Assembly: GCA_037200085.1 (NCBI GenBank)
Contig: JBBCHT010000007.1
Location: forward strand, 118-64,117
Length of the DNA stretch: 64,000 nucleotides
Origin: Actinomycetota bacterium
GTDB taxonomy: Bacteria; Actinomycetota; Actinomycetes; Nanopelagicales; Nanopelagicaceae
Direction of reading: 5' to 3'
Of the stretch, positions 4,520 to 31,089 are shown in pieces. Numbering within the stretch: the stretch's first letter is position 1; each line of letters opens with the position of its first letter. The notes under the pieces are model-generated. The model had not been told where the DNA came from. It did no database searches and saw nothing but the letters and a program-made list of their open reading frames with translations. The position numbers and the translations under genes are program-made.

Positions 4520-4594
4520 TTACAGTAAACCGCGCGAATTTGCTTTGCAATCGGTGGTAAATAGCACCCCTATTCATAGGGCAAGATATTGCTC

Positions 4595-5240
4595 ATGCGT
4601 CTAGACCATGTTTCTTATGTCACCACACACGAACAACTTGCAGACACCGTTCAACGATTAGGTTCAAGACTTGAATCTACTTTCGTTGATGGAGGAGTGC
4701 ATCCGAGATTCGGTACTCGCAATTTCACGCTTCCATTGCAAGGTGGTCACTACTTAGAAGTTGTTTGTCCTCTGGATCATCCAGCTAGTGATTCCTCACC
4801 ATTGGAAAAGCTGTTTCACAACGCGCACAAGCAGGTGGCGGTTGGTTAACGTGGGTTGTCTCAGTCGATGATGTTTCAAAGATCGAAACTCGATTGGGTC
4901 GCTCATCTGTTGATGGACATCGCACTCGACCGGATGGATCAGATTTGCGATGGAAACAAATTGGAGTTCTAGGAACTCTTGAAGATGCACAACTTCCCTT
5001 TTTCGTTCAGTGGCTTTCACAAGATCACCCATCAGCGGATGGAAAACCTGTTGCCAAGATCGTAAAAGTTGAAATTGCCGGAAGCGAAGAGACTATTGAG
5101 TCATGGCTTGGATCTGATTTGGCGAATGCAATCGGTGGCGTTGTGAAGTGCAATGGCTTTCTCCAGAACAAAATGATGGCGAAAGCGGAATTGTTGCGGT
5201 GCATTAGAAACGCCTCACGGGGGTAATTCGTTTAGATTAA
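4595..5240 (+). CDS. VOC/glyoxalase-like domain protein; frameshifted
   Basis: ORFs 4589-4849 and 4894-5226. N-terminus MRLDHVSYV...HPRFGTRNFTLPL. The tail, reconstructed in a third frame, ends at TAA 5238-5240. Confidence 0.5.
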
Positions 5241-6056: not shown

Positions 6057-7001
6057 GTGGCGATAGTGGGAAGTAAAGTCTTTGTCATCATTCCCTGTCT
6101 CAATGAAGCAGAATCCATACGACCCACGATTCAAGAGATTCGCTCTGTTCTTCCCGAGGCGTTCATCGCTGTTGTCGACAACGGGAGCACCGACAAGACA
6201 GTTGAAGTGGCAAAGAGTGAAGGTGTCACCGTTTGGCGCGAACCTCTCAAGGGCAAAGGATTCGCTGTTCGCCATGGATTCATGCGCATTCCAGATGAGT
6301 GCGATCTCGTTTTCATTACTGATGGAGATGGACACTCACGCGATTGCCCCAGTTCTTGATGCAATAAAACTTGTTCGTGAATATGGCTACGACATGGTCG
6401 TTGGTAAGCGTGAACCCGTGAAGGGCGATGGAACGCGAGCTGAAACATTCCGATTTGGACACAATCTGGGAAACACTTTGCTTACCAAGACTTTTCGATT
6501 GCTCTTCCCGGTCCCGATAAATGATTCACTTTCGGATGGAGAGTGATGTCTCGTGGATTTGTTAAATCCTTTGCAGGTGGAGCATCAGGTTTTGAAATTG
6601 AGGCAGAGCTCAATGCTCATTCCTACTTACTCAAATGTCCTGTTGCCGAAGTTGTCGTTCCATATCGCGGTCGAGGCGAAGAATCATTTTCTAAATTGAG
6701 AACCTACCGTGATGGATTTCGCATCCTGCGGAAAAATCTCAAACTCTTTCGTTCAGAGCGACCGAGTTTGGCTTTCAATATCACCGCCGCGCCATGGGCA
6801 ATCCTTAGCGTTATTCTTTTGATTCGCTCTTTGCGCGACTACTTCTCTGATGGACTCGTTCCTCACTTTCCATCGCTAGTAGTAAGTGTTGGATCATTCC
6901 TATCTGCTGCGCTCCTGTGGGTTACTGGAATGATTTTAGAGAGAGTACGAATTAATCGCGAGGCTTCCGCCAGGTATATCTACAGCACTTCATTTAGGTG
7001 A
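6057..7001 (+). CDS. GT2 glycosyltransferase with C-terminal TM segments (polyprenyl-phosphate glycosyltransferase/GtrB-like); two frameshifts
   Basis: Built from ORFs 6057-6359, part of 6082-6546, and 6543-7001. Motifs VIIPCLNEAESI, VVDNGSTDKT, ITDGDGH. Hydrophobic C-terminus. Confidence 0.7.
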
Positions 7002-8817
7002 AGAAGCGATTCGCATCTTTTCTTGATTGGAAAGATCAACCCATCGCATATGTGATTGTAGGTCTTACCTCGTTCATCTATTTCTTTTCTCTAGCTCGTC
7101 TTGATCCTGACATGCACCATGATGGAGTCCAGTTTGCTCCAGCAGTTGGTGTTGGTGATGGACTTCGAATTCATGCAGATGTTTATGAACAATATGGTCC
7201 AGTTACTGCGTGGATACAAGGCGCGACTCTTAAGGTTTTCGGATTTACGCTTTACAACTTGCGGCTAGAGACAGTCGTCGTCTTGGTTATCGCAGCACTT
7301 TTACTTACGAGAATTCTTTTTCTTCTCAAAGTGCCGCAATATGTAACGATACTTGTTCCAATAATTTGGGCTATAAGTTGTCCTGCATCTTCAATTTATC
7401 CAGGTGTTTTCGGTCTCTGGCCATGGTCATCAACCTTCTCACTCATTTTTCTCCTCGCAAATAGCGCTGTTCTGCTCCAAGCCCAGGTTCAGCGTCGACG
7501 TATGTCGTCTATAGAAATTTATTTCTGCGGTGTTATTGCGGGAGTTATTTTATTTACGAGGTTTCAAGTTGGTCTCGTAGCTGCTGTTGTAAATCTTGTG
7601 TTGATCTTCTTTGGAGTGGCAAGACATGCGAACATTAATCGTGGATCGAGAGTAAGTAAGTTCCTTGCTTCATATCTGTTGACAGTTGGTTTCTTCTTTT
7701 TCGTTCTCTGGTCGCAAGGTTCGGTCACTAATTTCATCGATCAAATTATTGTTGGTCCTTTGCATCAATATGTATTCCCTTACAGTTGGGCATTCTTCAA
7801 GGTTTATTACATATGGGCTTCTCTACCGATGGTGATCTTGCTCTTGCTTGGAGCAATCGTGTGGAGGAATTTTGCACCGGCCTATCGCGCTACAACCCTA
7901 ATAATTTTCGGCGGAATTATGTTCACGCTGATGTATATCGGAAATTGGAAAAACGGCGCAGCTCTCAATCGAATTGAACCATTCAGCGCCATTTTGGACG
8001 TTCAAGCGATTTCTCTTATGTTTACTTCAGTCTTTGTATTTCTCATACTTTCATTCTTTGGAATCTGCTATCTCTTTTCCATTGACTTCATTTACCCACT
8101 TCTCGCTAGTCCGACGCGGATGGGTAGAGCATCCAAAGACCTCATTCATTCCTTCGGTGTCAAAATTCCTAAACACCGACACTTCGTATCTCCTTTGCAG
8201 AGAGTGCGTAGAGAACGACTTGCGGAGTTGGCAACTTTGATATTTCTTGGACTTCCTTTCATTGTTCAGTTGTACCCGATTGCAGATGTCTATCACTTGT
8301 GGTGGGCTGCTCCACTCTTCATGGTTCTGATCCCATACCTTCTTGGAAATTTTGTATCGAGAAAAGGCGTTGTTGGCGATAATGGCAGTTTTTTCTCTTG
8401 CCATCACTTGTCGCATCGACTGCCATGGAAGTTCAACATTTGCGAGTGCATAGAAGTGAAATTTTTCTTGGTGCGCTCTCCGGAATGCAGATAGAAGATC
8501 AATACATTGATTCCTACAATGCGGTAAATACTATTTTGCACTCCGTTGCACCAGGGTCAGCACGTTTTGCTTGCAGGGATGGAATGATCTCCGCATGGGA
8601 TGGGAGTTACTCTTCCATTGATGCTGCTTACGTTGATTGGGCGTGGGTGGCAAAAAATCCACCAACGATACTTGCTCCAAGCAGAATATTCTTTTGTGGT
8701 ACTGCAGAGGCAGCAACTGCCTATGCCGCAGCAAATAATTTGAAAGTTGTTGGCCAAGGAGTGGGATATCGTCCTTCGTATTGGTCATACGGAGTCTTCT
8801 ACGAATTCTCCCGTTAG
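6998..8817 (+). CDS. Large polytopic membrane protein, putative GT-C-type glycosyltransferase/polymerase; one frameshift near 8400-8490
   Basis: ORFs 6998-8494 and 8398-8817. More than 10 hydrophobic segments followed by a soluble C-terminal domain. GTGA start/stop overlap with the upstream GT2. Confidence 0.45.
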
Positions 8818-8826
8818 GCTCGCTCT

Positions 8827-9771
8827 ATGAGTGAAGTGGATTCGTTGCTCATAACTGGCAGCGCGGGATTTGTTGGACAGAGCGTTTTGGATTACCTCGC
8901 TTCTATTTCGCTATCTGATCGTCCAAGACGAATTGGACTTGTCTCACACAAACAGCAAACTTACGTGCCTGCAGAATTGGCTGAGTCAACGGAGATAGAT
9001 CACCTACGCGCAGATTTACTTGAACCATGGGAAATGAAATTCGAAGCAACCCACATACTTCATTTGGCGGCGGATGGATCCTCATCCGCCTACTCAGATA
9101 AAGCATCGCGCGATTTTGTAACCATGACAAAAAATATGTGTGAATGGGCCGCAACGCTTCAACACCCGATCGTTTTTCATGCGAGTTCTGGCGCATGTTT
9201 TGGACATGTTCCCTTGTCCGAAAATTCAAGCGTCTCTAGCGGAGAAGGGTTGAGCGCCAAAAAGAAAGTATTTATAGAGAATCGATTGGCAGCTGAATCA
9301 GTGGTGAACTCTTACCATCAACAAGGAGTTATTGATCTTCGAGTTGGACGTCTTTACTCTTTTATTGGTTCACATCTGCGCGAAAAACCACATTATGCAG
9401 TTCCTCATTTTGTTCAGATGGCGCTTCACAATAGAAAGATAGAAATTTCTGGTAATCCTCGAACTACGAGAAGCTATTTATCGGCCGAGGATATGTCCGA
9501 TTGGATTTATCGAGCGTTGAACCCGAAGGTATCCTCAGAAATTCTTTCCATTGGAAGTGAAGTTCCGGTCACGTTGGGTGAAGTTGCGACTTTTGTGGCC
9601 GATAAGACGAATTCTGAGATTATTTACTTGGATCCACTCCGTGAGGGAGACTATTACGTGGCTTCAAATGGCTTAACCCGAGATCGTTTGGGAGTCGAAG
9701 AGAGAACATCGTGGCAAACTTCGTTGGAGAGTTATATCGAAACCTGTCGTGGAATGGATACGAATGAATAG
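8827..9771 (+). CDS. NAD-dependent epimerase/dehydratase-family SDR (possible YerF-like ketoreductase)
   Basis: Intact 314-aa ORF. Rossmann motif ITGSAGFVGQSV. Overlaps the start of the downstream ThDP enzyme. Confidence 0.7.
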   Translation: MSEVDSLLITGSAGFVGQSVLDYLASISLSDRPRRIGLVSHKQQTYVPAELAESTEIDHLRADLLEPWEMKFEATHILHLAADGSSSAYSDKASRDFVTMTKNMCEWAATLQHPIVFHASSGACFGHVPLSENSSVSSGEGLSAKKKVFIENRLAAESVVNSYHQQGVIDLRVGRLYSFIGSHLREKPHYAVPHFVQMALHNRKIEISGNPRTTRSYLSAEDMSDWIYRALNPKVSSEILSIGSEVPVTLGEVATFVADKTNSEIIYLDPLREGDYYVASNGLTRDRLGVEERTSWQTSLESYIETCRGMDTNE

Positions 9772-11639
9772 TGAAGTAGATGTAAAGAAGACAGGTGCCG
9801 ATTATTTGGTTCGCGAATTAATTGAACAAGGCGTTGATTTGATTTTCTGTATTACGGGTGCAGGCAATTTAGCGATTGTTGATGCGATTGTTCGAGAAGG
9901 TTCGATCCGACTTGTCTATTCCCATCATGAGCAAGCAGCTGTCATGGAGGCGCAAGGGTATTCGCGTGTCTCTGGAAAAGTCGGAGTAGCTTTAGTCACG
10001 ACTGGTGGAGGGGGCCGCCAATACTCTTACAGGAATTCTTAGCGCCTATCTCGATTCGATTCCAGTCTTGGTCATATCTGGAAACGAAAGTTCTTTTCAC
10101 TGTCAGAATTACTCGGAACTGCGGGCTTATGGCGTTCAAGGTTTTGACTCTGTAACAGTTTTAGATCGTGTAACTAAAAAGTCGCTAAGAGTTTTAGACG
10201 CGGCAAATGTTCTTCAGGATTTCTCTGCTGTTTGGAATGAGGCAAAGAGTGATCGAAAAGGACCAGTATTGCTTGATTTTCCGATGGATCTTCAACGCAA
10301 ATTACTCACGGCTTCTGAAGTACATGATGCTCCTTCGACGCTAGGTTCATCAAATGCCAATGAAATTTCAGAAGCGCTAGGAAGCGAGATCGAATCCCTC
10401 TCTGCTGCTTTGGAGGTCGCTGAACGACCACTTCTTTACATTGGGAACGGATGTCGAAATCCAGAAACTTTGGCTCTCGTCTCACATCTCATCGAGACTC
10501 TCGGAGCTCCATTTTGTCTCTCGTGGTCGGCTATTGATCTCTTCCCTTCAGATCATCCACAAAATGTCGGTCGTATCGGAATTTATGGGGATCGAGCTTC
10601 AAATATTGTCTTGCAGAAGGCCGATCTAGTTCTCTGTATTGGAACGCGGTTGGCGATTCCTCAAATCGGATATGACAAAGCAGACTTTGGTCGTCACGCC
10701 ACCAAATGGGTCGTAGAAATCGATCCGACTGAGTGTTCTAAGTTTGCTGAAACAGATTGGCATCTTCTCAATCTTGATGCAAAGACTTTTCTCCAGGCAA
10801 TTAAAGATAGAGAGTTTGCAAATAGTCGTGAACGAGTAACGTCGTGGCGCAAAGAGATTGTGACAATTTGGGAAGAACTTCCTCGCATCAATCAAGTGGG
10901 AACTTTGAGTTGGCCAGATCATCGCGCAGTTCACTCGGCGCAAGTTATGGAGTATCTCAACACGTCCCTTGATGAGGATGCCGTCATTTGTACCGACGTT
11001 GGAGCTGGACTTCTCACAGGGCATTACATGTTGGAGCCGCGAAAAGGACAACGGTTATTTACTTCTCAAGGCCTTGGTGAAATGGGATTCGGTCTGCCAG
11101 GGGCCATTGGTGCTCATTTTGGTGCGCCAAAGAGACAGTTGGTTTGTCTTGATACTGATGGTGGCATCATGTTCAATCTTCAAGAATTGCAACTCGTGTC
11201 GCAACACTCCATCAATATGAAACTTTTTATTTTCAATAATGATGGCTACACGATGATAAAGATTTCGCAGGAGAATCTCTTTGGTGCACGGTTAGCTGGG
11301 TCGGGAATTGAGTCCGGTGTTTCATTTCCGAATTTCCAGAAGATCGCAGAGACATTCAATTTGAAGTATGTACGAATCGATTCTGTTGAGGATTTTCAAA
11401 CGAAATTACTTCCCGTACTTCACGATAGTTCGGGAACGCTTATTGAAATCGTCATGTCTCCGAACCAAAAATATTTGCCGCGACTCGCCACAACGAAATT
11501 GGAAGATGGAACGTTGGTTTCACCTCCACTCGAAGATATCGATCCATTACTTTCGATTGAGGATCTTGAGAGATATCTGGGCTATCCAGCCCACCCAAAT
11601 TCATATAAGGCTCGAGGATTGAAGAATGAGTTCGCCTAA
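9764..11639 (+). CDS. Thiamine-diphosphate-dependent enzyme, acetolactate-synthase large-subunit/YerE-like; one frameshift in G5 run 10010-10014
   Basis: ORFs 9749-10042 and 10005-11639. Motifs GADYLVRELIEQGVD, HEQAAVMEAQGY, and the ThDP motif DTDGG...FNNDGY. Confidence 0.75.
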
Positions 11640-12519
11640 GATCAGAGTCGCTGTATTAGGCACTGGAAATATCGGCACTGATTTATGTGAACGACTCTTA
11701 CTTGATGATGAATTTGAAGTCGTAGCGGTCGTTGGTCGTCGAACAGATAGTCCAGGCTTACAACGTTTCGAAGGACGAATTAAGAATGTAATTTCAAATG
11801 GAATTGAAGGTTTGGGATCGATCGTTGATGACATCGACGGGGCTTTTGATGCTACCTCGGCATATAGCCATGCGGAACATTGGTCGTATATGAAAGACAA
11901 TGGAACGTGGATGATGGATTTAACGCCATCACGAATTGGAACCCCTGTTGTGCCTGAACTCCTCGATGAAGTTAGCTCCATGTCGCTGAACAATGAATTG
12001 GTGAGTAACTATTCAATGGTTACATGTGGCGGACAATCATCGGCTCCACTCATGCATGCCATGGCGAAAAATTCTCGTGGAATCAGCGAAGTTGAAGTCT
12101 CCTCAAGTATTGCCTCACTTTCGGCAGGGCCGGCAACGAGAAGAAATATCGATCAATACATTGCTTCGACGGAGGATCTTGTTCGAATTTTGACTGGTTG
12201 TTCAAGCGTTAAATCCATTCTTGTTTTAAATCCCGCTGAACCTCCCGTGATGATGCGAACCACAGTTCAAATGAGAGTTCAAAATTGCAATGTAGAGGCC
12301 GCAAAGGAAAATGCTGCCGCCATCGTGAAGCGTGTGCAGAAGTATGTTCCTGGCTATGACATTGCTGTTGAGCCATATCTAAAAGGCTCGGATTTAATTT
12401 CAGCGACTGCAAAAGTAGTTGGCGCCGGTTATTACCTGCCACCTTATGCGGGGAATCTAGACATTATTAACGCTGCCGCAGTGCAAACTGCAAGGCTCCA
12501 CGCAAGGAAATTCCAATGA
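11626..12519 (+). CDS. Acetaldehyde dehydrogenase (acetylating), DmpF/MhpF-like
   Basis: Intact 297-aa ORF. N-terminus KIRVAVLGTGNIGTDL; TCGGQSSAP (catalytic Cys context). Overlaps both neighbours. Confidence 0.7.
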   Translation: MSSPKIRVAVLGTGNIGTDLCERLLLDDEFEVVAVVGRRTDSPGLQRFEGRIKNVISNGIEGLGSIVDDIDGAFDATSAYSHAEHWSYMKDNGTWMMDLTPSRIGTPVVPELLDEVSSMSLNNELVSNYSMVTCGGQSSAPLMHAMAKNSRGISEVEVSSSIASLSAGPATRRNIDQYIASTEDLVRILTGCSSVKSILVLNPAEPPVMMRTTVQMRVQNCNVEAAKENAAAIVKRVQKYVPGYDIAVEPYLKGSDLISATAKVVGAGYYLPPYAGNLDIINAAAVQTARLHARKFQ

Positions 12520-13508
12520 CCCTTCTCTATGACGTGACGCTAAGAGATGGCAATCATGCGCTTCGCCACACACTTACCTCTGAATTCGTTTCTCAATATT
12601 GCAAGGTAGCGGATTCCTCGGGAGTTTGGGCAGTTGAAGTCGGACATGGAAATGGATTGGGTGCTTCATCATTCTTGGTCGGTAAATCGTCAGAATCTGA
12701 TGAGGAGTTACTCTCATTGGCAAGATCTCATTTGAAGAGTGCAAAATTGGCAGTTCATACTATTCCTGGTTTTGCAACCGCAGATAGAGATTTAATTCCA
12801 GCAATCGATATTGGAGTTGAAGTTTTTCGCGTTGCAACTCATGTAACCGAAGCAAGTGTTGCCGAAAAACATATTGAGTTTTTAGCTACAAGAAATTTAA
12901 TAGTTCATGGAGTACTCATGATGAGTCACATGATTGATATTGAAGGTCTAGTTGCACAAGCAACACTCATGAAGAAATTTGGCGCTTCCGCAATTATTTT
13001 GATGGATTCTGCGGGTCATTTTGTTCCTGATGAAGTAAGGGTTCGGGTCGATGCAGTACGAGAAAGGGTTGCGATTGAAGTCGGGTTTCATGCACATAAC
13101 AATTTAGGAGTTGCAGTATCAAATGCCGAATCGGCAATTGTTTCAGGAGCCAACATTATTGATGGAGCTTCTATGGGACTTGGGGCCGGAGCAGGAAATG
13201 CTCAGTTGGAAAATATTGTTGCTACCTCAATAAAAGTTGGCAAACCACTCTCTCCAGTCTCGCATTTTCTAGAGATGAGTCGTTTGGTTGAAACAACTTA
13301 TCCTGGCAATTTGCCACGAACGAATAGTTCAAGCATTGAAAGTGGACTGGCAGGAGTATTTAGTGGCTACGCGCCACAAGTCAAACAATTGTCTGAAGAA
13401 ATGGGAATCGAAGTTTCAGTTCTATGGCAAGAGATGGGAAAGAGAAAATTAGTTGCGGGACAAGAGTCGATGATTCGCGAAATCGCTCAAGACCTTATGA
13501 ATTTGTAG
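12516..13508 (+). CDS. 4-hydroxy-2-oxovalerate aldolase-like (DRE-TIM/HMGL-like, DmpG/MhpE family)
   Basis: Intact 330-aa ORF. Motifs DVTLRDGNHA and GFHAHNNLGVAVSNA. ATGA overlap with the upstream dehydrogenase. Confidence 0.7.
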   Translation: MTLLYDVTLRDGNHALRHTLTSEFVSQYCKVADSSGVWAVEVGHGNGLGASSFLVGKSSESDEELLSLARSHLKSAKLAVHTIPGFATADRDLIPAIDIGVEVFRVATHVTEASVAEKHIEFLATRNLIVHGVLMMSHMIDIEGLVAQATLMKKFGASAIILMDSAGHFVPDEVRVRVDAVRERVAIEVGFHAHNNLGVAVSNAESAIVSGANIIDGASMGLGAGAGNAQLENIVATSIKVGKPLSPVSHFLEMSRLVETTYPGNLPRTNSSSIESGLAGVFSGYAPQVKQLSEEMGIEVSVLWQEMGKRKLVAGQESMIREIAQDLMNL

Positions 13509-14461
13509 CGGTAGTCTCGGTGAGAATGTAGAGCGGACGTTGTTTTACTTCTTCATAAATGAGGCCGAGATACTGAGCGAGAATTCCAATACAGAGCATT
13601 GTGAGCGAGAAACCCAAGAAGATCAGACTGATAATTGACCCGAAACCAGCAAAGGGAACTCCGCTAATAATCCAGAAAATCGCTAAACCAAAGACGGCAA
13701 AGACAGAGAAGATACTCAAGAAAATTCCCAAAACTGAAACCCAGAGTAGAGGTGTAGCGCTGTAAGCCAAGATGCTTCGAGAGGCGTGGGCAATTACTGC
13801 AAATAGAGACATTCCGAGCCACTTAGATTCGCCTGCAAATCTTGCTGGTCGCTCCAATTCAATCTCTGTTGTTTTAAATCCAACCCAAGAACCTAGTCCG
13901 CGAAGGAAACGATGGTTTTCACGCAGGCGCCTAATCGCCTCATAAGTCTTCTTGTTAACTAAGCGGAAATCACTCACCGATTCGGGGGAGCATCCCTTCG
14001 GTCATTTTGGAGGCCAGGCGATAGAAAAGTTTTGACATGAATCGTCGAGTAAATGGAACTGATTCACGACTCACGATTTTGACTAAGACTTGATCAAAAC
14101 CCTTCTCTGATTCGCGCAGAAGTTGAGGAATCGCCTCGGGTGGATCTTGGAGATCAGATGTCATGATGATTGCAAGGTCACTCTTTGCATGATCTAACCC
14201 GCAAGTAAATGCAGCATCTAAAGTGAAATTTCGTGACATTCGAAAACCAGTAATTCGATTGTCTTTTTGTGAAGCTTTCTGGATTATTTCCCACGTACTA
14301 TCAATCGAACCGTTATCCATGACAAGGATTCCGTAGTCATACTCAGTCTCTGTTTTCATCACGAGTTCGATTCTTCGGAACAACTCGGGGAGACACTCTT
14401 CTTCATTAAATGCTGAAGTGATGATATCTACGGTAGTCAATTGTTTCTTTGGTTTACGCAC
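13495..14461 (-). CDS. GT2 polyprenyl-phosphate glycosyltransferase (GtrB/DPM1-like) with C-terminal TM helices; one frameshift near 13975
   Basis: ORFs 13970-14461 (N-terminal part: ITSAFNEEECL, MDNGSIDST, MTSDLQDPPE) and 13495-13977 (C-terminal TM part). Confidence 0.75.
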
Positions 14462-15237
14462 GTGTAATTCCTCGAAGCCAAGGTGGTGGTGTCTCTAGCG
14501 CCAACTTTGCGAGTTCTTGTTTTTCACGAAGAGTATCCATCGGTTGCCAGAAATCCTGATGTTGATACGCCATGAGTTGATCTCTCTCGACCAATCGAGG
14601 AAGTGCTCCTGATTCAAATGGTTCAGAATCTCCGTGGACTAGGTCGGCGACTTCAGGTTCGAGTACGAAGAATCCACCGTTGATCCATCCAGCATCAGCT
14701 TGATTCTTCTCCCCGAAGTGAATGACCTTTGTATCTTCAATATGAAGATGTCCAAATCTTGCTGGCGGGCGAACCGCGGTAACAGTTGCCAATTTCCCAT
14801 GTGATTCGTGAAATTCCAGTAACTTCTTGATTGACACATTCGCTAGACCGTCGCCATAGGTAGCAATGATTCTCTCGCCAGGAAAAGCTTTCATGCATTG
14901 AGCAATTCGCCCGCCGGTTTGTGTGTGCAGGCCAGTTTCCAGCGCGGTAACGCTCCATGAAAAAGTGGAAGATTTTTCTAAACGGTGCACTTTCTTGTGA
15001 AGAGTATCGATTCTTATATCTCCATCAAGATCATTGAGATCCAGTAACCACCGCTTGATTACATCACTGCGATAACCCAATGCCAGCACAAATTCATCAA
15101 TTCCTTGAAGAGAGAAGATATTCATTAAGTGCCAAAGAATCGGCTTGTCATCGATCAGAACCATCGGTTTTTGGCTTACTTTCCGTCTCCTCTGAGAGTC
15201 TGGTACCCAGACCTCCAGCGAGAATGACGACCTTCAC
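14454..15237 (-). CDS. rfbF: Glucose-1-phosphate cytidylyltransferase; frameshift in T5/A5 run 15168-15172
   Basis: ORF 14454-15164 plus the reconstructed N-terminus [31 protein letters not shown] start at 15235-15237 overlaps the rfbH stop (GTGA). Confidence 0.8.
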
Positions 15238-16554
15238 TTCTCTCCTCTTTTTGAAGTAAGTATTTGGTGAAGGGATTCAATCATGTAATCAAGCATAGGA
15301 ATAGTGAGTCCTGGCCAAACACCAATCCAGAAGGTGCTATTCATGACGATATCTGTATTGGTTAGTTCGCCATGCACTCGTCGCGGAGTATTCGCAAATC
15401 CAGGTTGACGAAGAAGGTTGCCACCAAAAAGAAGACGGGTTCCAATTTTTCGTTCGTCGAGAAGTTTTACAATTTTATTGCGACTTACAGGACTGTTTCC
15501 TCTGACGGTAATAACAAATCCGAACCACGAAGGATCACCATCAGTTGTTGGTTCCGGCAAAATGAAAAACTCTTCCAAATCTCGAAGACCTTCTTTTAAG
15601 TAACTCCAATTTCTACGTCTGAGTTCAACGAAACTGCTTAATCGGTCGAGTTGTGCCAGGCCAATCGCAGCTTGAATATCGCCAGACTTCAAGTTGTATC
15701 CAAGATGCGAATAAATATATTTATGGTCATATCCCTCAGGCAATTCACCTAACTGCCACTCATATCGCTTAAGGCAAGTATTCTCACAACCGGGAGCACA
15801 CCAACAATCTCTTCCCCAATCGCGAAGCGATTCGACGATTCGTTTATACGCAACTTTTTTTATGAGTACAGATCCACCTTCACCTGTCGTGATGTGATGC
15901 GCCGGATAGAAACTAAAAGTCGAAAGATCGCCGAAACTTCCAAGGTTCTGACCTTTGTAGGTGCCACCTAAAGCATCACAACTATCTTCAACAAACCATA
16001 AGTCATGCTTCTTTGTGAGTTTTTCAATGAGAGATAAATTAAATGGATTTCCCAGTGTGTGCGCCATCATGATTGCTTTTGTCTTTGGCCCAATTGCGGA
16101 TTCGAGAGCTTCTTCGTTGGCGACGTATGTTTTTTAGGTCGACATCAACATAAACTGGAGTCAATCCATTTTGAATGATTGGCGTAACTGTTGTTGGAAA
16201 ACCTGCTGCAACTGTGAGTACTTCATCGCCAGGCTTAAGCGCGCGTTCGCCGAGTGCTGGACTTGTAAGAGTTGTGAGTGCTAAAAGATTTGCTGACGAT
16301 CCTGAATTCACCATAAAGGAATGGCGCATTCCAACTGTCTTTGCGAATCTGCTTTCGAATTCTTCTGCATATGGTCCAGAAGTCAGCCAAAAATCCAAAC
16401 TCGCTTTTACTGCGGCAGAGATTTCTGGTGCTCCAAAAACCTTTCCCGTTACTGGAATTACAGACTCTCCTGGAATGAACTCTTTGGCGGAATGTTTTTC
16501 TTGCAACGCTGATTCCACCAATTGAGCGATCATCTCGTCGCTGCTCGAGTTCAA
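15234..16554 (-). CDS. rfbH: CDP-4-keto-6-deoxy-D-glucose 3-dehydrase (E1, DdhC/RfbH); frameshift in T6/A6 run 16130-16135
   Basis: ORFs 16039-16659 and 15234-16070. E1 hallmarks: His at the PLP-Lys position ([14 protein letters not shown]) and the Cys cluster [12 protein letters not shown]. The start is uncertain: TTG 16554, ATG 16533, or the ORF maximum at 16659. Confidence 0.8.
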
Positions 16555-16629
16555 ATGAGACCCTGTCCGAAGTGCCGATAACGGCAACTCCTTGTTCGTT
16601 GTTGAATGAGTAAAGACTACTGTTTGACC

Positions 16630-17696
16630 ATGGATTTTGCGCTCGGCCAAAGGCTTCACGGTCTAGCCGGACCAGTTTTGGTAACAGGACACACTGGTTT
16701 CAAAGGCACATGGCTCACTCTTTTTCTTCAGCGATTAGGTATCCCTGTTGTTGGGGCTTTCTCTTGCTCCTACAAAAGATTCTTTATTTGAAAGAGCGTC
16801 GCGCACGGGAGTGATCCCTGAAAGTTTTTCGGATATACGTGACCATAAAAAGGTTCGTGATGTCATTGATAAATTTCAACCAAGCGCCATTTTTCATTTA
16901 GCTGCGCAACCAATTGTTTTGGAGTCATATAGAACGCCACGTGAGACTTTTGAAACGAATGTCATCGGCACAGCAAATGTGCTGGAAGCGGCTTTTGATA
17001 GCAGTTCAGTACAAGTGGTTGGTGTAGTGACTACAGATAAGGTTTATAGAAATGACAATTCGGGTAGAGCATTTGTAGAGACAGATTCGCTCGCAGGAAA
17101 AGATCCTTATAGCGCAGCAAAGTTGGCGCAGAGACTGTTGTTGCAGCTTGCAACAGATTGCCCATGTGAATGGTGGACCAAAAGTTGTTTCGCTCAGAGC
17201 TGGAAATGTCATCGGTGGTGAGATTGGGCTAAAGATCGTCTACTTCCGGATCTCATACGTGGTTTTGCGAAGGACGAAACTGTCTCAGTTCGCAATCCCC
17301 GGTAGCACTCGACCTTGGCAACATGTGATGGATCCATTGCACGGTTATGTCTTGGCAATCGAATATTTACTTTCGGGTGGTGACTTAGCGGCGGTGAACT
17401 TCGGTCCGGATTCAGCAAGTTTAAGAGCGTGAAGGAAGTTGTCGAGTTGAGTAGAGAATCGTGGCCGAAAAATACTCACGTTGAATTCTTAAGTGAGAGT
17501 AGTGCCAATGTGAGCGAGGCGCTGAGTTTGCAACTTGATTCTTCTCTTGCAAAAAAACCTTCTTCACTGGCGCGCGGCGTGGAGTCAGAAGCAATCCGTT
17601 CAAGCGACAGTTCACTGGTGGGATGGAGTGCTTAATGGCGCGACAACACCGACTGAAGCATGTGGCGCCGATATAGAACTTTTGCTGTCATCGTGA
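16630..17696 (+). CDS. rfbG: CDP-glucose 4,6-dehydratase; at least 3 frameshifts
   Basis: Built from ORFs 16606-16791, 16748-17221, 17148-17432, 17429-17635 plus a tail to TGA 17694-17696. N-terminus [18 protein letters not shown]; DPYSAAK. Divergent from rfbH. Confidence 0.75.
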
Positions 17697-17715: not shown

Positions 17716-19549
17716 GTGAGAAATTTACAACAGTTGCGCGAAGGAACATTCGCGCGTTCGGCCAGAGTTCTTTCACAGCGAGATCGTCGAAAGATGTTTC
17801 TTGTTGCCATTGTTCAAATCGGGTTGAGTTTGTTGGATTTGATCGGCGTCTTGCTGATTGGAATTTTGGGCGCACTTATGGTGACGGGTGTTCAATCTCG
17901 AGAGCCGGGTAATCGAGTGAATTCAGTGCTCGAGTTGATGCACATTTCACATAAATCTTTTCAAGCACAAGCCGCAATTCTTGGACTCGCTGCGGTCATT
18001 TTCTTAGTAGGTCGCACCATCATCTCCATAGTTTTCACGCGACGGATTCTTTTCTTTTTAAGTCGCAGAGGTGCACTGATTTCATCTCGACTTATTTCTC
18101 GACTGCTCTCACAACCGATGCTTAAAGTTCAGGCGAGGACCACGCAGGAAACCTTGTATTCGGTGACATCTGGTGTAGAAGTAATCGTCTTGAGCGTTTT
18201 GGCGACATCCATTTCAATTTTGTCAGATGTTTCAGTTCTTGCAGTAATGACGATTGGACTATTTGTTGTAGATCCAGTCATTGCAGTAGGAACATTCGGA
18301 GTTTTTGCAGGCGTCGGATTTTCTCTATACCGACTCATGCATGTGCGCGCTCGCCAGTTGGGTCGCCTCAATTACAGATTAAATGTTAAGAGCAACGAGA
18401 AAATCGTTGAAGTATTTAGTTCTTATCGAGAATCCGTAGTTCGCAACCGTCGAGATTATTATGCCCGTGAAAATCGGCAAAATGAGATTGAGCCTGGCTG
18501 ACACGATGGCTGAAGTGACTTTTATGCCCTACATCAGCAAATACGTGATTGAAGTAATCGTTCTGCTGGGAGCAGTTGTCATCGGAGCAGTGCAATTCGT
18601 TTTGCAGGATGCAGCCCATGCTGTTTCGACAATTTCAGTATTTATCGCGGCTGGTACGCGAATTGCTCCGGCAGTCCTTCGCGTTCAGCAATCAGCAGTT
18701 TCAATTCGAATGAATCTAGGTAAGGCCACGCCAACGCTAGATTTGATTGAAGAGCTTGGCTCTGTTGTCGAAGTAGAAAACACAGATGACAGAGTAGATA
18801 CAGTTCACGAAGGATTTAAAGCCAATATAGATGTAAAAGATGTATCGCTTTATTATCCAGGTGCATCAAAACCTGCGGTTTCAAACGTTTCACTCCATAT
18901 TCCCATTGGAACATCGGTTGCAATCGTTGGTCCATCTGGAGCGGGCAAGACAACAATCGTGGATGTACTTTTAGGTGTTCTCGTTCCTGACTCTGGAAGC
19001 GTTGAAATTTTCTGGTGAACCTCCGCTGGAAGCAGTTGGAAAGTGGCCAGGAGCAGTTGCTTATGTTCCACAAGATGTTGTGATTGCCAACGGAACGATT
19101 AGAGAAAATATTGCTCTCGGCTATCCCATCGCGGAGGCGACTGATGAACTTGTTTTCAATGCGCTAGATGTTGCTCACCTTCAAGAGTATGTCGCTGGTT
19201 TGCCTGACGGAGTTGAAACACAAGTTGGAGAACGTGGTACAAAAATAAGTGGTGGTCAGAGACAACGACTTGGAATTGCGCGTGCAATGTTTACAAAACC
19301 GCATCTCCTTGTTCTAGATGAAGCGACGAGTTCTCTTGATGGTGAAACAGAGGCGAGTATCTCCTCGGCAATTCATGCACTTCGCGAACAATTACAGTAG
19401 TGATGATTGCTCATCGCCTATCAACAGTAAGAAGTGTTGACATGGTTGTGTATATGGCGAAAGGCAAAGTGGTCGCTACTGGCACTTTCGAGGAAGTACG
19501 AAAGGTAGTTCCTGATTTTGATCGTCAAGCGAAATTGATGGGTCTGTAG
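17716..19549 (+). CDS. Fused TMD-NBD ABC exporter (MsbA/PglK-like); at least 3 frameshifts
   Basis: Built from ORFs 17716-18501, 18461-19018, 18975-19400 plus a tail to TAG 19547-19549. Walker A GPSGAGKTT, signature ISGGQRQR, Walker B LLVLDEATSSLD. Confidence 0.75.
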
Positions 19550-21375: not shown

Positions 21376-22351
21376 ATGTCCAAAGTTGCACTTGTCACTG
21401 GTATTACAGGACAAGATGGTCAGCATTTGGCCGAATTGCTTCTCTCCAAGGTTATCGGACATACGGCCTAGTAACTGGTCAACGTAGTTCGTTAAATGAC
21501 GAAATCATTCGTAAATTTCCGGATGTCACTTTAGTCCGTGGTGATTTAGCGGATTTTTCCAGTCTCTTACAGGTGATCGGGGAAACCGAGCCTGACGAGA
21601 TTTACAACTTAGGTGCGCTGAGTTATGTCGGATTGAGTTTTAATCAACCTGAACTGACGGCCAATGTCACGGGACTTGGAATATTGAGAATTCTAGAAGC
21701 TACCCGCAAGCTAAAACTTGAAAAGAAGACGCGGATATATCAGGCATCATCGTCAGAGATGTTTGGCAAAGTTCGTGAAACTCCCCAAAATGAATTGACG
21801 CCATTTCATCCGCGTTCTCCCTATGGAGTTGCTAAAGCGTTTGCTCACTACACCTGCGTTCAATATCGCGAGTCCTATGACATGTTTATTTGCTCAGAAT
21901 TCTCTTTAATCATGAAGGTGAAAATCGTGGCCATGAATTTGTAACGCGAAAAATCTCGTCCAATGTGGCGAGAATAAAACTTGGCAAGCAAGAGAAATTC
22001 TCATTGGGAAATATCGCCCCAAGTAGAGATTGGGGATATGCAGGAGATTATGTAGAAGCCATGTGGATGATGCTTCAACAGGATAAGCCAGAGGATTTTG
22101 TCATCGCGACAGGAATTTCTCACACAGTTAAGGAATTCGTCATTGAAGCGCTACTCGTTGCGGGATTGGAACCCGATCTAGATAAGTATCTCGATTACGA
22201 TCCGGCGATGATACGTCCAAGCGAAGTGGATACTTTGGTTGGAGATGCCAGTAAAGCCGAACGCCAGTTGGGGTGGAAACCGAAAGTGAATTTCAAAGAG
22301 CTAGTGAAGATCATGGTCGAGCATGACCTTCGAGTTGAGGCAGGTACGTAA
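21376..22351 (+). CDS. gmd: GDP-mannose 4,6-dehydratase; at least 2 frameshifts
   Basis: N-terminus MSKVALVTGITGQDGQHLAELLL starts at ATG 21376. ORFs 21573-21944 and 21890-22351. Motifs YQASSSEMFGK, SPYGVAKAFAH, FNHEGENRG. Confidence 0.8.
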
Positions 22352-23603: not shown

Positions 23604-24495
23604 CTATTGCCCGACCTTTGTATCGGAAATTTCTCCTTTAAGTAGGGATCGAAGATATTGCGCGAAAGGATTGCCGTTGTAGTCGGCAGCAAGTGAAAGT
23701 AATTTTTCATCGCTTATCCATTTATTCCGCCAAGCAATTTCTTCGAGACATGAAATTTTGTACCCCTGACGCTCTTCGATAATTTTCACGTATGCGCTGG
23801 CTGCATGAAGAGATTCCAAAGTGCCAGTATCTAGCCAGGCCGTTCCGCGCTCCAGCACGGTCGTTGTTAGATTTTCCAAGCGACAAATAACGCTGATTGA
23901 CTGAAGTGATTTCAAGTTCGCCACGAGCACTGGGAGTAACAGACTTGGCAATTTCTACAACATTTTCATCATAAAAATAGAGTCCTGGAACAGCAAAACT
24001 CGATTTCGGTACTTTAGGTTTTTCTTCAATTGAAATTACTTTGCCGTCTGCATCGAATTCAACGACTCCATAGTTTTCCGGGTCGCTTACCTTGTAGGCA
24101 AAAATGTGAGCGCCTACTACTGAAGTCGAATTCTTCAATTGCGAACCTAGACCAGCGCCGTGAAAAATATTGTCACCAAGAGCAAGTGCAACTTTGTTTC
24201 CATCAATGAACTTCTCGCCGATGATAAATGCTTGAGCTAGTCCATCCGGTGAAGGTTGAACTGCAAATTGAATTTCGATTCCTAAATCGGAGCCATCTCC
24301 TAAAAGTCGTTGGAAGGAGGCGAGTCCTTCAGGAGCAGTAATAATTAATATTTCACGAATGCCAGCAAGCATTAGTGTGCCAAGGGGATAGTGCACGAGA
24401 GGCTTATCGTAAATAGGAAGTAATTGTTTGCTAATACCGCGAGTGATGGGCCAGAGTCTTGATCCAGTTCCTCCCGCTAAGACAATTCCCTTCAT
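23604..24495 (-). CDS. rmlA: Glucose-1-phosphate thymidylyltransferase; one frameshift near 23880-23950
   Basis: [33 protein letters not shown] starts at ATG 24493-24495, inside ORF 23722-24726. The C-terminus is in ORF 23604-23951 ([10 protein letters not shown]). Confidence 0.85.
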
Positions 24496-24556
24496 TTGGC
24501 AAAGCGTACCTTGCGTGTAGGTTAGGTCAATAACGCGAGATTGGAGATAGAGCGAA

Positions 24557-25514
24557 GTGAGAGTTCTCGTCACTGGCGGAGCTGGATTTATTGGCTCTAA
24601 CTTCGTCCGACGCGTTGTGGATGGTTCGTTGAGTGGAATTACATCAATCACCGTGTTAGATAAATTGACATATGCAGGATCGATGACAAATTTGGAGATC
24701 TTGCCAAAGAATAGTTTTGAATTCATTCAAGGTGATATTTGCGATCAAGGCTTAACTTCACAACTGGCCAAGAGGCATGATGCGATCATCAATTTCGCGG
24801 CAGAATCGCACGTAGATCGCTCTATAAATGGATCAAGGGATTTTGTATTGACCAATGTTTTGGGTACGCAAACACTTCTTGAGTCAGTACGTGGATCAGA
24901 TCTGACTTTTGTTCAAGTATCAACTGACGAGGTTTATGGCAGCATCCCTTCTGGATCCTGGGTTGAAAGTGATCCCTTGCTTCCAAATTCACCATATTCA
25001 GCTTCTAAAGCTTCAGCTGATCTATTCGTTAGGTCATTTGGCAAAACTTATGGATTGATGTACGGACCACTCGCTGTAGTAACAATTACGGTCCCTATCA
25101 ATTCCAGAAAAAGTCATTCCACTCTTTGTCACTAACCTCATTGACGGCCTCAAAGTTCCACTTTACGGAGATGGAAAGAATGTCCGAGATTGGTTGCATG
25201 TGGACGACCACTGTCGCGGTATTCACGCCGTGCTTACTCGAGGAAAATCCGGTGAAATTTACAACATCGGCGGAGGCACTGAACTATCCAATGTAACTCT
25301 TACAGAAACGATCTTGGAGAAAATGGGCAAAGATGGATCTTCGATTGTGAGAGTTGAGGATCGTCTCGGACACGATTTGAGATATTCAGTTGATATTTCA
25401 AAAATTTCTCGCGAATTGGGATACGCGCCGCTTGTCTCTTGGGAAGATGGTTTGGCATCGACAATCGAGTGGTATAAAAAGAATGGGTCGTGGTGGCGTC
25501 CACTAAAGAAATGA
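24557..25514 (+). CDS. rmlB: dTDP-glucose 4,6-dehydratase; frameshifted near 25060-25190
   Basis: ORFs 24557-25135 and 25194-25514. Motifs [34 protein letters not shown] (bridging frame). Divergent from rmlA. Confidence 0.85.
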
Positions 25515-28824: not shown

Positions 28825-28872
28825 TCGGTTTTGGTATTGAAGATATTCGCGGTACTTTTTGCCGCACGATCA

Positions 28873-28947
28873 GCCGCCTTAGCTCAGGGTAGAGCAACGC
28901 ACCTCGTAATGCGTAGGTCCGGGGTTCGAATCCCCGAGGCGGCTCCA
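28873..28947 (+). tRNA. tRNA-Thr (anticodon CGT) with encoded CCA; as written it has an 8-nt anticodon loop and a short D-loop
   Basis: Manual cloverleaf: acceptor GCCGCCT/AGGCGGC, D stem GCTC/GAGC, anticodon stem ACGCA/TGCGT with loop CCTCGTAA, T arm CGGGG-TTCGAAT-CCCCG, then T-CCA. Confidence 0.8.
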
Positions 28948-31089
28948 CGGTCGAATCGAATTAAAACCTTGGATTTCTCGTTGTCCTCAAGAGAAATTCT
29001 TGGGAGTGCTTTTTCAAGCCAACTTGGAAGCCACCAATTTGCTGGTCCCCACCACTGCATAAGTGCGGGCACTAAAGCGCATCGAATGATGGTTGCATCA
29101 AAGAGCACTGCGGAGGCAAGACCAACTCCCGAACTCTTGAATTACTCGTTGGCCGCCAAAGACGAATGCACCAAAGACTGCAAACATGATTGTTGCAGCG
29201 GCAGTGATTACTCCACCCGTTGCTGCAAGACCTCTTCTTACCGCAGCGGAATTGTCATGAGAAATTTCCCACTCTTCTCGAATTCGAGAAACTAAGAAGA
29301 CTTCATAGTCCATTGAGAGTCCAAAGAGAATTGCGAAGAGCATGATCGGAAGGAATGGTTCTATTGGTCCACCGCGTGCGCCGAGGAATGGTTCCGCCCA
29401 CCCCCATTGAAAGCAGCAACCAAGACACCGAATGCTGCACCGATTGAGAAGATGTTCATGACTGCCGCTTTGAGTGGGATGAGCACACTTCTGAAGAGGA
29501 TCATCAGAAGTAGGAAACTCAAAAGAACCACAACAGCAATAAAGAATGGCAACTTGCTGGAAAGTACGTGGCCGAAATCGGCAAAGATCGCAACAATTCC
29601 ACCCACATAGACATGGATAGAAGAGCCTTGTAACGCAGTTGGAATTATCTCCTTTCGCAGCCGTTCAATGAGCTTTGTCGTATCTTCAGATTGTGGTGAA
29701 CTTTTCGCATAGACGTTAATGATTCCAATTGAGTGATCTGGAGTGAAGAAGGTAGGAGTCACTTGAGCTACATCTTCATCAGCTGCAACCGAAGACTCAA
29801 GTCTTTCGATGACCGCCGTATCTGCTCCTTCAGGAATTGAGGCAACGAGCATCAACGGTCCGCTATATCCCGCACCAAAACCCTTCGCCAATAAGTCGTA
29901 GGCAGCACGAGTAGTTGTGGTCTTTGGATCGTTACCGGAATCGGCACTTCCCAATCGAATATCGAAAGTTGGAATGCAGAGCACAATCAAGAGAATGAGC
30001 GCTGAAATACTCCAAACAATTGGACGTCGTTGTATCGCTCGAGACCATTGAGCCCATCGACCGCTCTCAATGTCGTGGTGATTCTTTGCTTCGTCCAGGA
30101 ATGAGAACTTGTCGATTCTCTTTCCGACCATTGCAAGTAAAGCAGGAAGCAAAGTAAGTGATGCGCTCATTGTGATGAGAACGGCCAACGAAGCAGCGAC
30201 AGCTACTCCGTATAAGAAACTTACGCCGACTGTGAATAGTCCCAAAAGTGCAATGCAAACAATGATTCCTGCAAAGAGCACAGCTCTACCCGAAGTTTTG
30301 ACTGCCGTTTTGACTGCTTCTTCAACAGTGATACCTGAGTGAATGCCTTGGCGAAAACGAGTAACAATGAAGAGTGCATAATCGATTCCGACGCCGAGTC
30401 CAACTAGTGCAGACAGGATCGGAGCAAATTGTGCAATGGAGAATGCATGGCTTAGAAGTCCGATTGCTGCAGAAGCAATTCCCAGACCTACGACAGCTAC
30501 GAAGAGTGGAATCAGCGTTGCGACAATGCTGCCAAAAGTTATGAAGAGAAGGCAGCGGCTGCGAGTAGTGCGATTCCTTCACTTGAACTTGGCCTAGCTT
30601 CTGTCGCGCCTTGAATTGCATTTCCAAGCAACTCCACTTGCACATCTGCATCGGAAAAACTTTTTGCTGTTTTGATTATTGCAACGATGTCACTTTTGGG
30701 AATGTGTTGCGAACTCTCATCGAGATGTACCGTCGAGAAAGCGACTTTGCCGTCCCTTGCTAAGCGCGCCATTCTTTTCATCGAAAGGAGAGTCAATTTC
30801 AGCCACATGACGAAGAGTCGAGAGTTTCGCCTCGATTGGAGCAATTTTTTCTGACGTTAGCTCTCCAACTTTTGCCGCGTACGACGCTGGATTGAGTCCC
30901 CCGTTGGGTCGGAGCGTATTTGGTTAGAAGATCTAGGGCTGTCTTGCTCTCCGTATTGGGCAGAGTGAAGGAGTCGCTATAGGCGGTTCCGGCGTTCTGC
31001 GCGAGTACCGTTATTCCACCCAAGAGAAGTAGCCAGAGAAGTACTACTAGTTTTCGGTGTTTAAAGGTCCAATTGGCAATGAAAGACAT
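28884..31089 (-). CDS. MMPL/RND-superfamily membrane transporter; many frameshifts; the true stop is probably near 28960
   Basis: Fragments 30799-31089 (N-terminus), 30539-30844, 30322-30651, 29361-30281, 29098-29343, 28884-29108. C-terminal WWGPANWWLPSWLEKALPRIS motif. Divergent from the TetR gene. Confidence 0.7.

Follow-up and report, generated by a model that had tools for sequence, protein, structure and literature searches.

A probable erwiniose-type branched-sugar gene cluster in the glycan island of a freshwater actinobacterium

Described C4-branching pathways and the locus in the window

The closest described system to the gene cluster treated here is the erwiniose pathway of Pectobacterium atrosepticum SCRI1043. 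Steitz et al. (2022, PMC9306805) reported that erwE, erwF, erwJ and erwI of this organism lie consecutively, together with the genes for cytidine diphosphate (CDP)-4-keto-3,6-dideoxyglucose, and encode a thiamine diphosphate (ThDP)-dependent enzyme, a reductase, an acetaldehyde dehydrogenase and a pyruvate aldolase, respectively; ErwI resembles BphI, and ErwJ BphJ, at 43% and 41% sequence similarity, respectively. In this pathway acetyl-CoA and pyruvate yield 4-hydroxy-2-oxovalerate, which the ThDP enzyme uses as donor to form the C4 branch of erwiniose, 3,6-dideoxy-4-C-(1,3-dihydroxybutyl)hexose (PMC9306805). With ketone and aldehyde surrogates as acceptors, ErwE turned over 4-hydroxy-2-oxopentanoate, the (4R) form in preference, but not pyruvate, and the authors used the rejection of pyruvate to place the aldolase step before branching (PMC9306805). 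The branching step itself has been shown in vitro for ErwE only, and partly for JanthE, with surrogate acceptors. The present analysis concerns a related cluster at positions 8827 to 17696 of a stretch of 64,000 nucleotides, hereafter the window, from a freshwater Actinomycetota metagenome-assembled genome (MAG; assembly GCA_037200085.1, contig JBBCHT010000007.1) whose nearest genomes are Nanopelagicaceae. With a probability of roughly 0.7, it is an erwiniose-type acyl-branched-sugar cluster lying within a glycan island, and the frameshifts that interrupt its genes in the deposited sequence are assembly errors.

Genes were identified by listing open reading frames (ORFs) and by Pfam and NCBIfam profile searches of the window proteins. 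Four genes lie on the + strand and are linked by stop/start overlaps of 8, 14 and 4 nt. They encode a short-chain dehydrogenase/reductase (SDR)-fold protein of an atypical extended type (8827..9771; 314 aa; Pfam Epimerase, 80.7 bits), a ThDP-dependent carboligase assigned below to the JanthE clade (9764..11639; 624 aa after frameshift correction; TPP_enzyme_N, M and C domains), an acylating acetaldehyde dehydrogenase resembling DmpF, BphJ and ErwJ (11626..12519; 297 aa; AcetDehyd-dimer, 127.9 bits), and a class II pyruvate aldolase of the 4-hydroxy-2-oxovalerate type resembling DmpG, BphI and ErwI (12516..13508; 330 aa; HMGL-like and DmpG_comm domains). Three genes follow on the - strand: a family 2 glycosyltransferase (GT2) of the GtrB/ArnC/PgfS-like polyprenyl-phosphate type with C-terminal transmembrane helices (13495..14461; 321 aa corrected), rfbF/ddhA, encoding glucose-1-phosphate cytidylyltransferase (14454..15237; 260 aa corrected; TIGR02623, 245.9 bits on the truncated ORF), and rfbH/ddhC, encoding the E1 enzyme CDP-6-deoxy-L-threo-D-glycero-4-hexulose 3-dehydrase (15234..16554; 439 aa corrected; NF011936, 466 and 181 bits in two pieces). 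The CDP-glucose 4,6-dehydratase gene, rfbG/ddhB (16630..17696), is on the + strand, divergent from rfbH, and was delineated by three-frame translation and by tblastn with the RfbG proteins of two related loci (L009 and L004 in the numbering of compared loci and contigs used here). The CDP-4-keto-3,6-dideoxy-D-glucose genes rfbF, rfbG and rfbH were assigned by NCBIfam equivalog models, and the corrected 439-aa RfbH contains both hallmarks of E1, a 14-residue motif with His in place of the pyridoxal phosphate-binding lysine and a 12-residue [2Fe-2S] Cys motif. An earlier note, made from the letters of this DNA alone, had named the SDR, ThDP, dehydrogenase, aldolase, rfbF, rfbG and rfbH genes at these coordinates, and had pointed to the overlapping stop and start codons and to the E1 hallmarks; the profile searches and the corrected ORFs uphold all of this. 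All of these genes are intact and in the same order on the complete Nanopelagicaceae chromosome OZ248346 (L009), so the arrangement in the window is not due to chance.

The cluster resembles that of erwiniose in holding a ThDP carboligase, a BphI-like aldolase, a BphJ-like dehydrogenase, an SDR, the CDP-4-keto-3,6-dideoxyglucose genes and a glycosyltransferase, and in the chemistry proposed for it, a C4 branch derived from 4-hydroxy-2-oxopentanoate. It differs in its host, a Gram-positive freshwater actinobacterium without lipopolysaccharide (LPS), in its gene order, SDR-ThDP-dehydrogenase-aldolase, where the consecutive erw accessions suggest ThDP-SDR-dehydrogenase-aldolase, and in its SDR, which is without the catalytic Tyr and Lys. 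From their family membership, RfbF, RfbG and RfbH would convert glucose-1-phosphate and CTP to CDP-4-keto-3,6-dideoxy-D-glucose, with E1 presumably re-reduced by a reductase encoded outside the island. Following the published ErwJ/ErwI scheme, the DmpF-like enzyme would convert acetyl-CoA to acetaldehyde and the DmpG-like aldolase would join acetaldehyde to pyruvate to give (4R)-4-hydroxy-2-oxopentanoate, a stereochemistry to which the active-site signature described below also points. By homology, the ThDP enzyme is predicted to decarboxylate this acid and to add a 3-hydroxybutanoyl group to C4 of the keto sugar, leaving a tertiary alcohol with a C4 branch. The branch carbonyl may then be reduced to yield CDP-erwiniose or a stereoisomer, a step for which the window holds no convincing enzyme, and the GtrB-like GT2 may move the sugar to polyprenyl phosphate for a cell-envelope polymer. 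The earlier note had proposed that 4-hydroxy-2-oxovalerate from the aldolase pair serves as donor for a C4 branch on an undescribed sugar; the donor and the branch match the published erwiniose pathway, but "undescribed" is wrong, since Steitz et al. (2022, PMC9306805) show the same scheme and erwiniose is the sugar to be expected. The leading mechanism has good support but was already described in 2022, and what is new here is the actinobacterial host example, which would extend the pathway from Gram-negative LPS and mycobacterial lipooligosaccharides into the abundant freshwater Actinomycetota. To our knowledge, little is known of the surface glycans of freshwater Actinomycetota, and a search of the papers available found none linking Nanopelagicales to this pathway.

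The ThDP enzyme and its proposed donor-supply genes

JanthE of Janthinobacterium sp. HH01 (8rph, 8rpi, 8rpj) is a YerE-like lyase with a CDG ThDP-binding motif that accepts several 2-oxoacids, including 4-hydroxy-2-oxovalerate, and accepts pyruvate as well; its physiological substrates have been reported as unknown. It is the closest characterised and solved relative of the window ThDP protein, whose best PDB match is 8rph at 452 bits, with ~590 residues aligned at ~40% identity. Acetolactate synthases reach at most 218 bits and PpYerE (5ahk) 198 bits in the same comparison, which answers the question of a housekeeping acetolactate synthase, left as a check by the earlier note, in the negative. 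The acetolactate synthase model TIGR00118 scored 244.9 bits on the 544-aa ThDP fragment against a cutoff of 538.35, with other acetolactate synthase models also far below their cutoffs. A protein search of a plasmid collection, used as a baseline, found true acetolactate synthases only, the products of annotated ilvB genes, at 29–31% identity to the ThDP protein, and the ThDP protein is 27% identical to the YerE-type protein of Yersinia canariae; the description "YerE-like" that had been applied to it was therefore a loose analogy, the protein being no closer to YerE than to acetolactate synthases. Sequence comparison places the enzyme in the JanthE clade, as neither a YerE proper nor an acetolactate synthase. 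It has in common with JanthE a C-terminal LVSPPLED extension and differs from it in its ThDP-binding motif, which is TDG (CLDTDGG) rather than CDG or GDG; the JanthE locus also has an extra SDR of the YerF type. The yersiniose A pathway (ddhDABC plus YerE and YerF) likewise has a CDP-3,6-dideoxy-4-keto acceptor, ThDP-dependent C4 branching and a downstream GtrB-like GT2, but the Yersinia locus (L069) has an E3 gene (ddhD), a 571-aa YerE with a GDG motif and a canonical YerF SDR, has no aldolase/dehydrogenase pair, and forms a C2 branch from pyruvate.

The dehydrogenase of the window scored 283 bits against NF006157 (cutoff 166) and 275.7 bits against TIGR03215, below the cutoff of 282.25, and in an alignment to 7z3s it keeps the catalytic Cys in TCGGQ. 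The aldolase scored 293.6 bits against TIGR03217 (cutoff 286) and keeps, in BphI numbering, Arg16, Asp17, His20 and two metal-binding His residues. Positions were mapped through ungapped alignments and the known offset between DmpG and BphI (Arg17/Arg16, His21/His20), with the BphI numbering taken from a review rather than from the BphI sequence. On this basis, His81 and Phe282 of the window aldolase occupy the positions of BphI Leu87 and Tyr290, which are held by Leu and Tyr in the three solved catabolic aldolases aligned with it (8ih7, 4jn6 and 4lrs). The replacement is uniform among the cluster-linked aldolases, which are 43–79% identical to the window protein: His was found in 52/52 and Phe in 50/50 readable sequences. 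BphI is strictly (4S)-specific, its Y290F variant loses stereocontrol, and the L87N/Y290F and L87W/Y290F variants are (4R)-specific (PMC3962088). His and Phe in place of Leu87 and Tyr290 thus predict (4R) rather than (4S) stereochemistry, and the signature would be a natural counterpart of the engineered (4R)-specific BphI, which fits the need for a (4R) donor. The Ile at the position of BphI Leu89 argues for a short aldehyde, which fits as well. The His/Phe signature, together with the link between ThDP motif and aldolase module described below, is a new observation of modest extent.

In its two-protein architecture, its HMGL-like plus DmpG_comm and AcetDehyd-dimer domains, its catalytic residues and its probable aldehyde channelling, the pair is like DmpFG, BphIJ, MhpEF and HsaFG, but it is unlike them in having no meta-cleavage neighbours, in its proposed synthetic direction and in the His/Phe replacement. 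No hydratase or extradiol dioxygenase was found among the genes near the DmpF/DmpG pair in the window, as the earlier note had remarked. A catabolic meta-cleavage role for the pair was rejected on account of this lack and of His81/Phe282 in place of Leu/Tyr.

An alignment that joined JanthE to the ThDP protein and its relatives was used, through the patterns GNESSFHC and AIPQIGYD, to scan 185,579 species genomes, and 65 loci were recovered. They belong to Nanopelagicaceae and other Actinomycetota, Burkholderiales, Legionellales, Verrucomicrobiota, Bacteroidota, Bdellovibrionota, Nitrospirota and Chloroflexota. The ThDP motif was CDG in 44 loci, TDG in 10 (all actinobacterial), GDG in 5 and ADG in 1. 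By tblastn with the window proteins, about 50 loci have DmpF-like and DmpG-like genes next to the ThDP gene, usually along with RfbF/G/H. Neighbourhood counts were limited to the 40 loci in which the ThDP gene is flanked by 4 kb or more of sequence on each side: DmpF and DmpG were within 5 kb of 34 of the 35 CDG/TDG-type ThDP genes and of none of the five GDG/ADG-type genes, and RfbH was within 10 kb of the ThDP gene in 38 of 40, counts that are descriptive rather than independent trials, the loci having been picked via ThDP motifs and being kin to one another. The adjacency of the ThDP and DmpF/DmpG genes to rfbF/G/H is conserved across phyla, and the co-occurrence that had been proposed for checking across genomes was borne out. 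Two sequence rules emerge from the survey: DmpF and DmpG beside a JanthE-clade ThDP gene mark a C4-branch module, and the aldolases of such modules carry His/Phe. Generic annotation names and the sub-threshold acetolactate synthase profile matches might suggest a coincidence, in which an rfb cluster happens to adjoin a catabolic DmpFG pair and a housekeeping acetolactate synthase; this reading may be counted as already refuted by the JanthE-clade affiliation of the ThDP protein, the 34/35 adjacency, the lack of a hydratase or extradiol dioxygenase and an aldolase active site unlike that of the catabolic enzymes.

The order of steps is a separate question. JanthE takes pyruvate, and the same final carbon skeleton would arise if the ThDP enzyme, in the manner of YerE, first used pyruvate to add an acetyl branch and the branch or the sugar chain was then lengthened with acetaldehyde by the aldolase, much as the earlier note had offered as its second route. 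This order is improbable. ErwE rejects pyruvate, and Steitz et al. (PMC9306805) excluded aldol extension after branching on that experimental ground. The window aldolase also keeps the full pyruvate- and metal-binding set and the DmpG communication domain, as expected of an enzyme acting on free pyruvate and acetaldehyde, and its His/Phe signature is in keeping with a free oxoacid of (4R) configuration.

One locus of the survey bears on JanthE itself. A Duganella sp. S19_KUP01_CR8 locus (L036:6775-17325) encodes a ThDP protein 98% identical to JanthE in the order RfbF-RfbG-RfbH-ThDP-SDR(YerF-type)-DmpF-DmpG-SDR-GT2, and so has, like the window, DmpF/DmpG, RfbF/G/H and an SDR. This locus suggests 4-hydroxy-2-oxopentanoate and CDP-4-keto-3,6-dideoxyglucose as the natural substrates of JanthE, and the survey thereby supplies candidate physiological substrates for that enzyme.

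Other loci carry a different donor supply or none. In caryophyllose clusters (MMAR_2331, an HpcH-family aldolase, and MMAR_2332, a ThDP enzyme) an aldolase-made hydroxylated 2-oxoacid likewise serves as donor and the keto sugar is the same, but the aldolase belongs to another family and the branch is longer. Two surveyed loci (L029:9992-12575 and L053:10007-12652) have GDG-type ThDP genes without DmpFG, followed directly by an HpcH/HpaI aldolase gene, as in the caryophyllose clusters. In two others (L066:10001-13830 and L012:10001-13838) JanthE-clade ThDP genes of the GDG/ADG type are accompanied by no aldolase, and only by an SDR and an FkbM methyltransferase. Donor-supply modules appear to have been swapped around a common ThDP core, which fits a modular "unifying scheme".

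The reductive steps and the end product

The window SDR has an intact GxxGxxG NAD(P) motif, and Phe149 and Arg153 stand at the positions of the catalytic Tyr and Lys, a placement on which three alignments concur, including those to the Tyr/Lys of UXS1 and to the YxxxK of the proteobacterial cluster SDRs. Eight actinobacterial orthologues (L005-L011 and L055), 37–47% identical to the window SDR, all have F149, R153 and K146, and also Y190, H118 and C124. These proteins form an SDR subfamily in which YxxxK is replaced by an unvarying K146-x-x-F149-x-x-x-R153, with HASSGACFG likewise invariant; it was seen only beside TDG-type ThDP genes of Actinomycetota. In locus L004, which is the most closely related in its other genes, this slot is occupied by a canonical YxxxK SDR, and the proteobacterial clusters have canonical YxxxK SDRs of the same loose group. 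In 17 proteobacterial loci of the DmpFG type, a YerF-type SDR gene follows directly after the ThDP gene and encodes a protein with 50% identity to the one in the YerF position of Yersinia. The window SDR is not significantly similar to that Yersinia protein and was rejected as a YerF orthologue.

Several points weigh against the erwiniose-type assignment. The adjacent SDR with its Phe/Arg replacement and the want of a YerF-type reductase, for which tblastn found no candidate in the window or in the actinobacterial loci, leave the last step and the exact product uncertain; with an SDR devoid of catalytic Tyr and Lys, the final reduction is without a convincing enzyme here. Nor was an E3 gene found in the 64-kb window, either by a motif scan or by subsequent tblastn with the AscD-type E3 proteins of L049 and L051, the domain make-up looked for being Fer2-FAD_binding_6-NAD_binding_1; the earlier note's statement that the island shows no E3 partner thus holds for the entire window. 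The broad acceptance by JanthE of pyruvate and other 2-oxoacids means that the choice of donor is not readable from homology alone, and enzyme functions in this lineage are predictions from homology. The likeness to ErwE, ErwI and ErwJ (WP_011093010, WP_011093013 and WP_011093012) is drawn from gene content and published description; P. atrosepticum was absent from the 65 scanned loci and from the top 120 relatives of PpYerE (query rebuilt from the 5ahk alignment), which came from Pseudomonas and Yersinia, with no Pectobacterium. To these are added the kinship among the surveyed loci, noted above, and the partial coverage of the frameshifts by an independent assembly, described below.

Among the related loci, E3 was found only in L049 and L051, and most clusters of the family encode E1 without E3. 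Where present, an AscD-type E3 gene lies directly upstream of rfbF (L049:4195-5193 and L051:5145-6299), as it does in Yersinia (L069:3791-4780). General cellular reductases serve some E1 homologues, such as SpnQ, and by analogy a general cellular reductase serving E1 would be the simplest explanation of the missing E3.

It is possible, though on the whole unlikely, that the same carbon skeleton leads to another end product, a keto-retaining 4-C-(3-hydroxybutanoyl)-3,6-dideoxyhexose or some other derivative, with the SDR acting as a non-canonical or non-redox partner. The invariance of Phe149 and Arg153 in all eight orthologues, and their agreed placement in three independent alignments, would be explained in this way, as would the distribution of the YerF-type SDR, found in 17 proteobacterial loci of the DmpFG type and in no actinobacterial one; FkbM-type methyltransferases are also encoded nearby. 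However, the SDR retains its NAD(P) motif and is encoded in translational coupling with the ThDP enzyme, the acid might come from other invariant residues (K146, Y190, H118 and C124), the corresponding SDR of L004 is a canonical YxxxK protein, and a reductase could be encoded elsewhere. The TDG motif, the atypical SDR and the missing YerF-type and E3 genes are features of this lineage that make the exact end product uncertain.

A broader and more speculative proposal, advanced only tentatively and at low confidence, is that freshwater Actinomycetota of the Nanopelagicaceae and Acidimicrobiia types run a distinct version of acyl branching, with a TDG lyase, a (4R) His/Phe aldolase and a Tyr/Lys-less SDR and with no dedicated E3 or YerF. 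Its product would be a not-yet-described C4-acyl-branched, possibly keto-retaining 3,6-dideoxyhexose on a Gram-positive envelope, made in a region rich in glycan-synthesis genes.

Frameshifts in the deposited sequence and the surrounding island

Five genes of the cluster (ThDP, GT2, rfbF, rfbH and rfbG) are broken by frameshifts in the deposited sequence; the earlier note had read its genes as continuous and passed over those in the ThDP, rfbF, rfbH and rfbG genes. An extra base in the G5 run at 10010-10014 splits the ThDP gene into two ORFs, and the GT2 gene is split likewise by an extra G in the G5 run starting at 13984, rfbF by an extra T in the T5 run starting at 15168, and rfbH by one extra T in a T6 run at 16130. 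The rfbG gene is divided into about seven frame segments, with the first junction at a G4 run at 16753 and the later junctions mapped less precisely than to a single base. The frameshift sites mapped to a single base are all in homopolymer runs (5/5: ThDP, GT2, rfbF, rfbH and the first rfbG junction). Removal of one G gives a 624-aa ThDP protein, in line with full-length relatives of 613–625 aa, and with one T removed rfbH encodes an uninterrupted 439-aa protein; the corrected ORFs are free of nonsense codons. A short-read Logan contig of the same population (L002, SRR28211700) is identical to window positions 10011-16052 except that it has neither the extra G at 13984 nor the extra T at 15168, and its version encodes an intact 321-aa GT2 and a 260-aa RfbF. 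This independent assembly contradicts just two of the frameshifts, those in the GT2 and rfbF genes, with the ThDP, rfbH and rfbG sites lying outside L002; a look-up of the SDR in other assemblies matched the source contig only and gave no independent copy of the ThDP frameshift site. On the strength of the homopolymer positions, the two sites intact in L002 and the intact corrected ORFs, the frameshifts are most likely consensus or assembly errors and not gene decay.

A cluster in decay, a pseudogene remnant with real frameshifts, might be suspected from the density of the lesions, at least ten frameshifts in about 9 kb, and from the many further split ORFs between position 1 and ~38 kb. This is very improbable given that all five precisely mapped sites are homopolymeric, that nonsense codons are lacking from the corrected ORFs, that both sites covered by the independent assembly are intact there, and that the window proteins are 57–86% identical to intact orthologues. 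Across the window as a whole, many genes are split into short ORFs from ~1 to 38 kb, and ORFs are mostly long from 38 to 64 kb, a pattern that looks like uneven consensus quality rather than biology. Heavily split ORFs in this assembly should not be taken as gene decay.

Upstream of the cluster on the + strand are a second, fragmented GT2 gene (~6057-7001; Glycos_transf_2 match) and, directly upstream of the SDR gene, a gene for a 498-aa polytopic membrane protein (6998-8494) recognised by its hydrophobic segments, for which no Pfam family was found. From their sequences these two (6057..8494) would be a candidate periplasmic-face transferase pair. Over its full length, the GT2 within the cluster shares 30% identity (E 2e-41) with the GtrB-like GT2 of a Yersinia yersiniose-type cluster, where the GT2 is accompanied by GtrA and a large membrane protein. 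Downstream lie an ATP-binding cassette (ABC) exporter, an FkbM methyltransferase, GDP-mannose 4,6-dehydratase fragments and another nucleotidyltransferase. The exporter is of the fused type, is spread over three + strand ORFs (17716..19400) with ABC_tran matches, and is possibly a lipid-linked glycan flippase or exporter. A second nucleotide-sugar pathway is represented in the island, at 21573-22351 and 23722-24726, by the frameshifted GDP-mannose 4,6-dehydratase fragments and a - strand gene for a 334-aa sugar-phosphate nucleotidyltransferase.

Two upstream candidates for meta-cleavage enzymes were considered and rejected: alpha/beta-hydrolase fragments, which belong to a TAP-like peptidase (Abhydrolase_4), and a Glyoxalase_3 protein, considered as an extradiol dioxygenase, which is of a different family and lies ~4 kb from the operon. 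The gene for this Glyoxalase_3-domain protein is fragmented in the window (4589-5226), and in a Planktophila MAG (L012:9260-9922) its counterpart lies immediately upstream of the ThDP gene. ARAGORN also reported a tRNA-like element at 28873-28947, given as "tRNA-???" with cg at position 33, which overlaps the ORF at 28831-29295.

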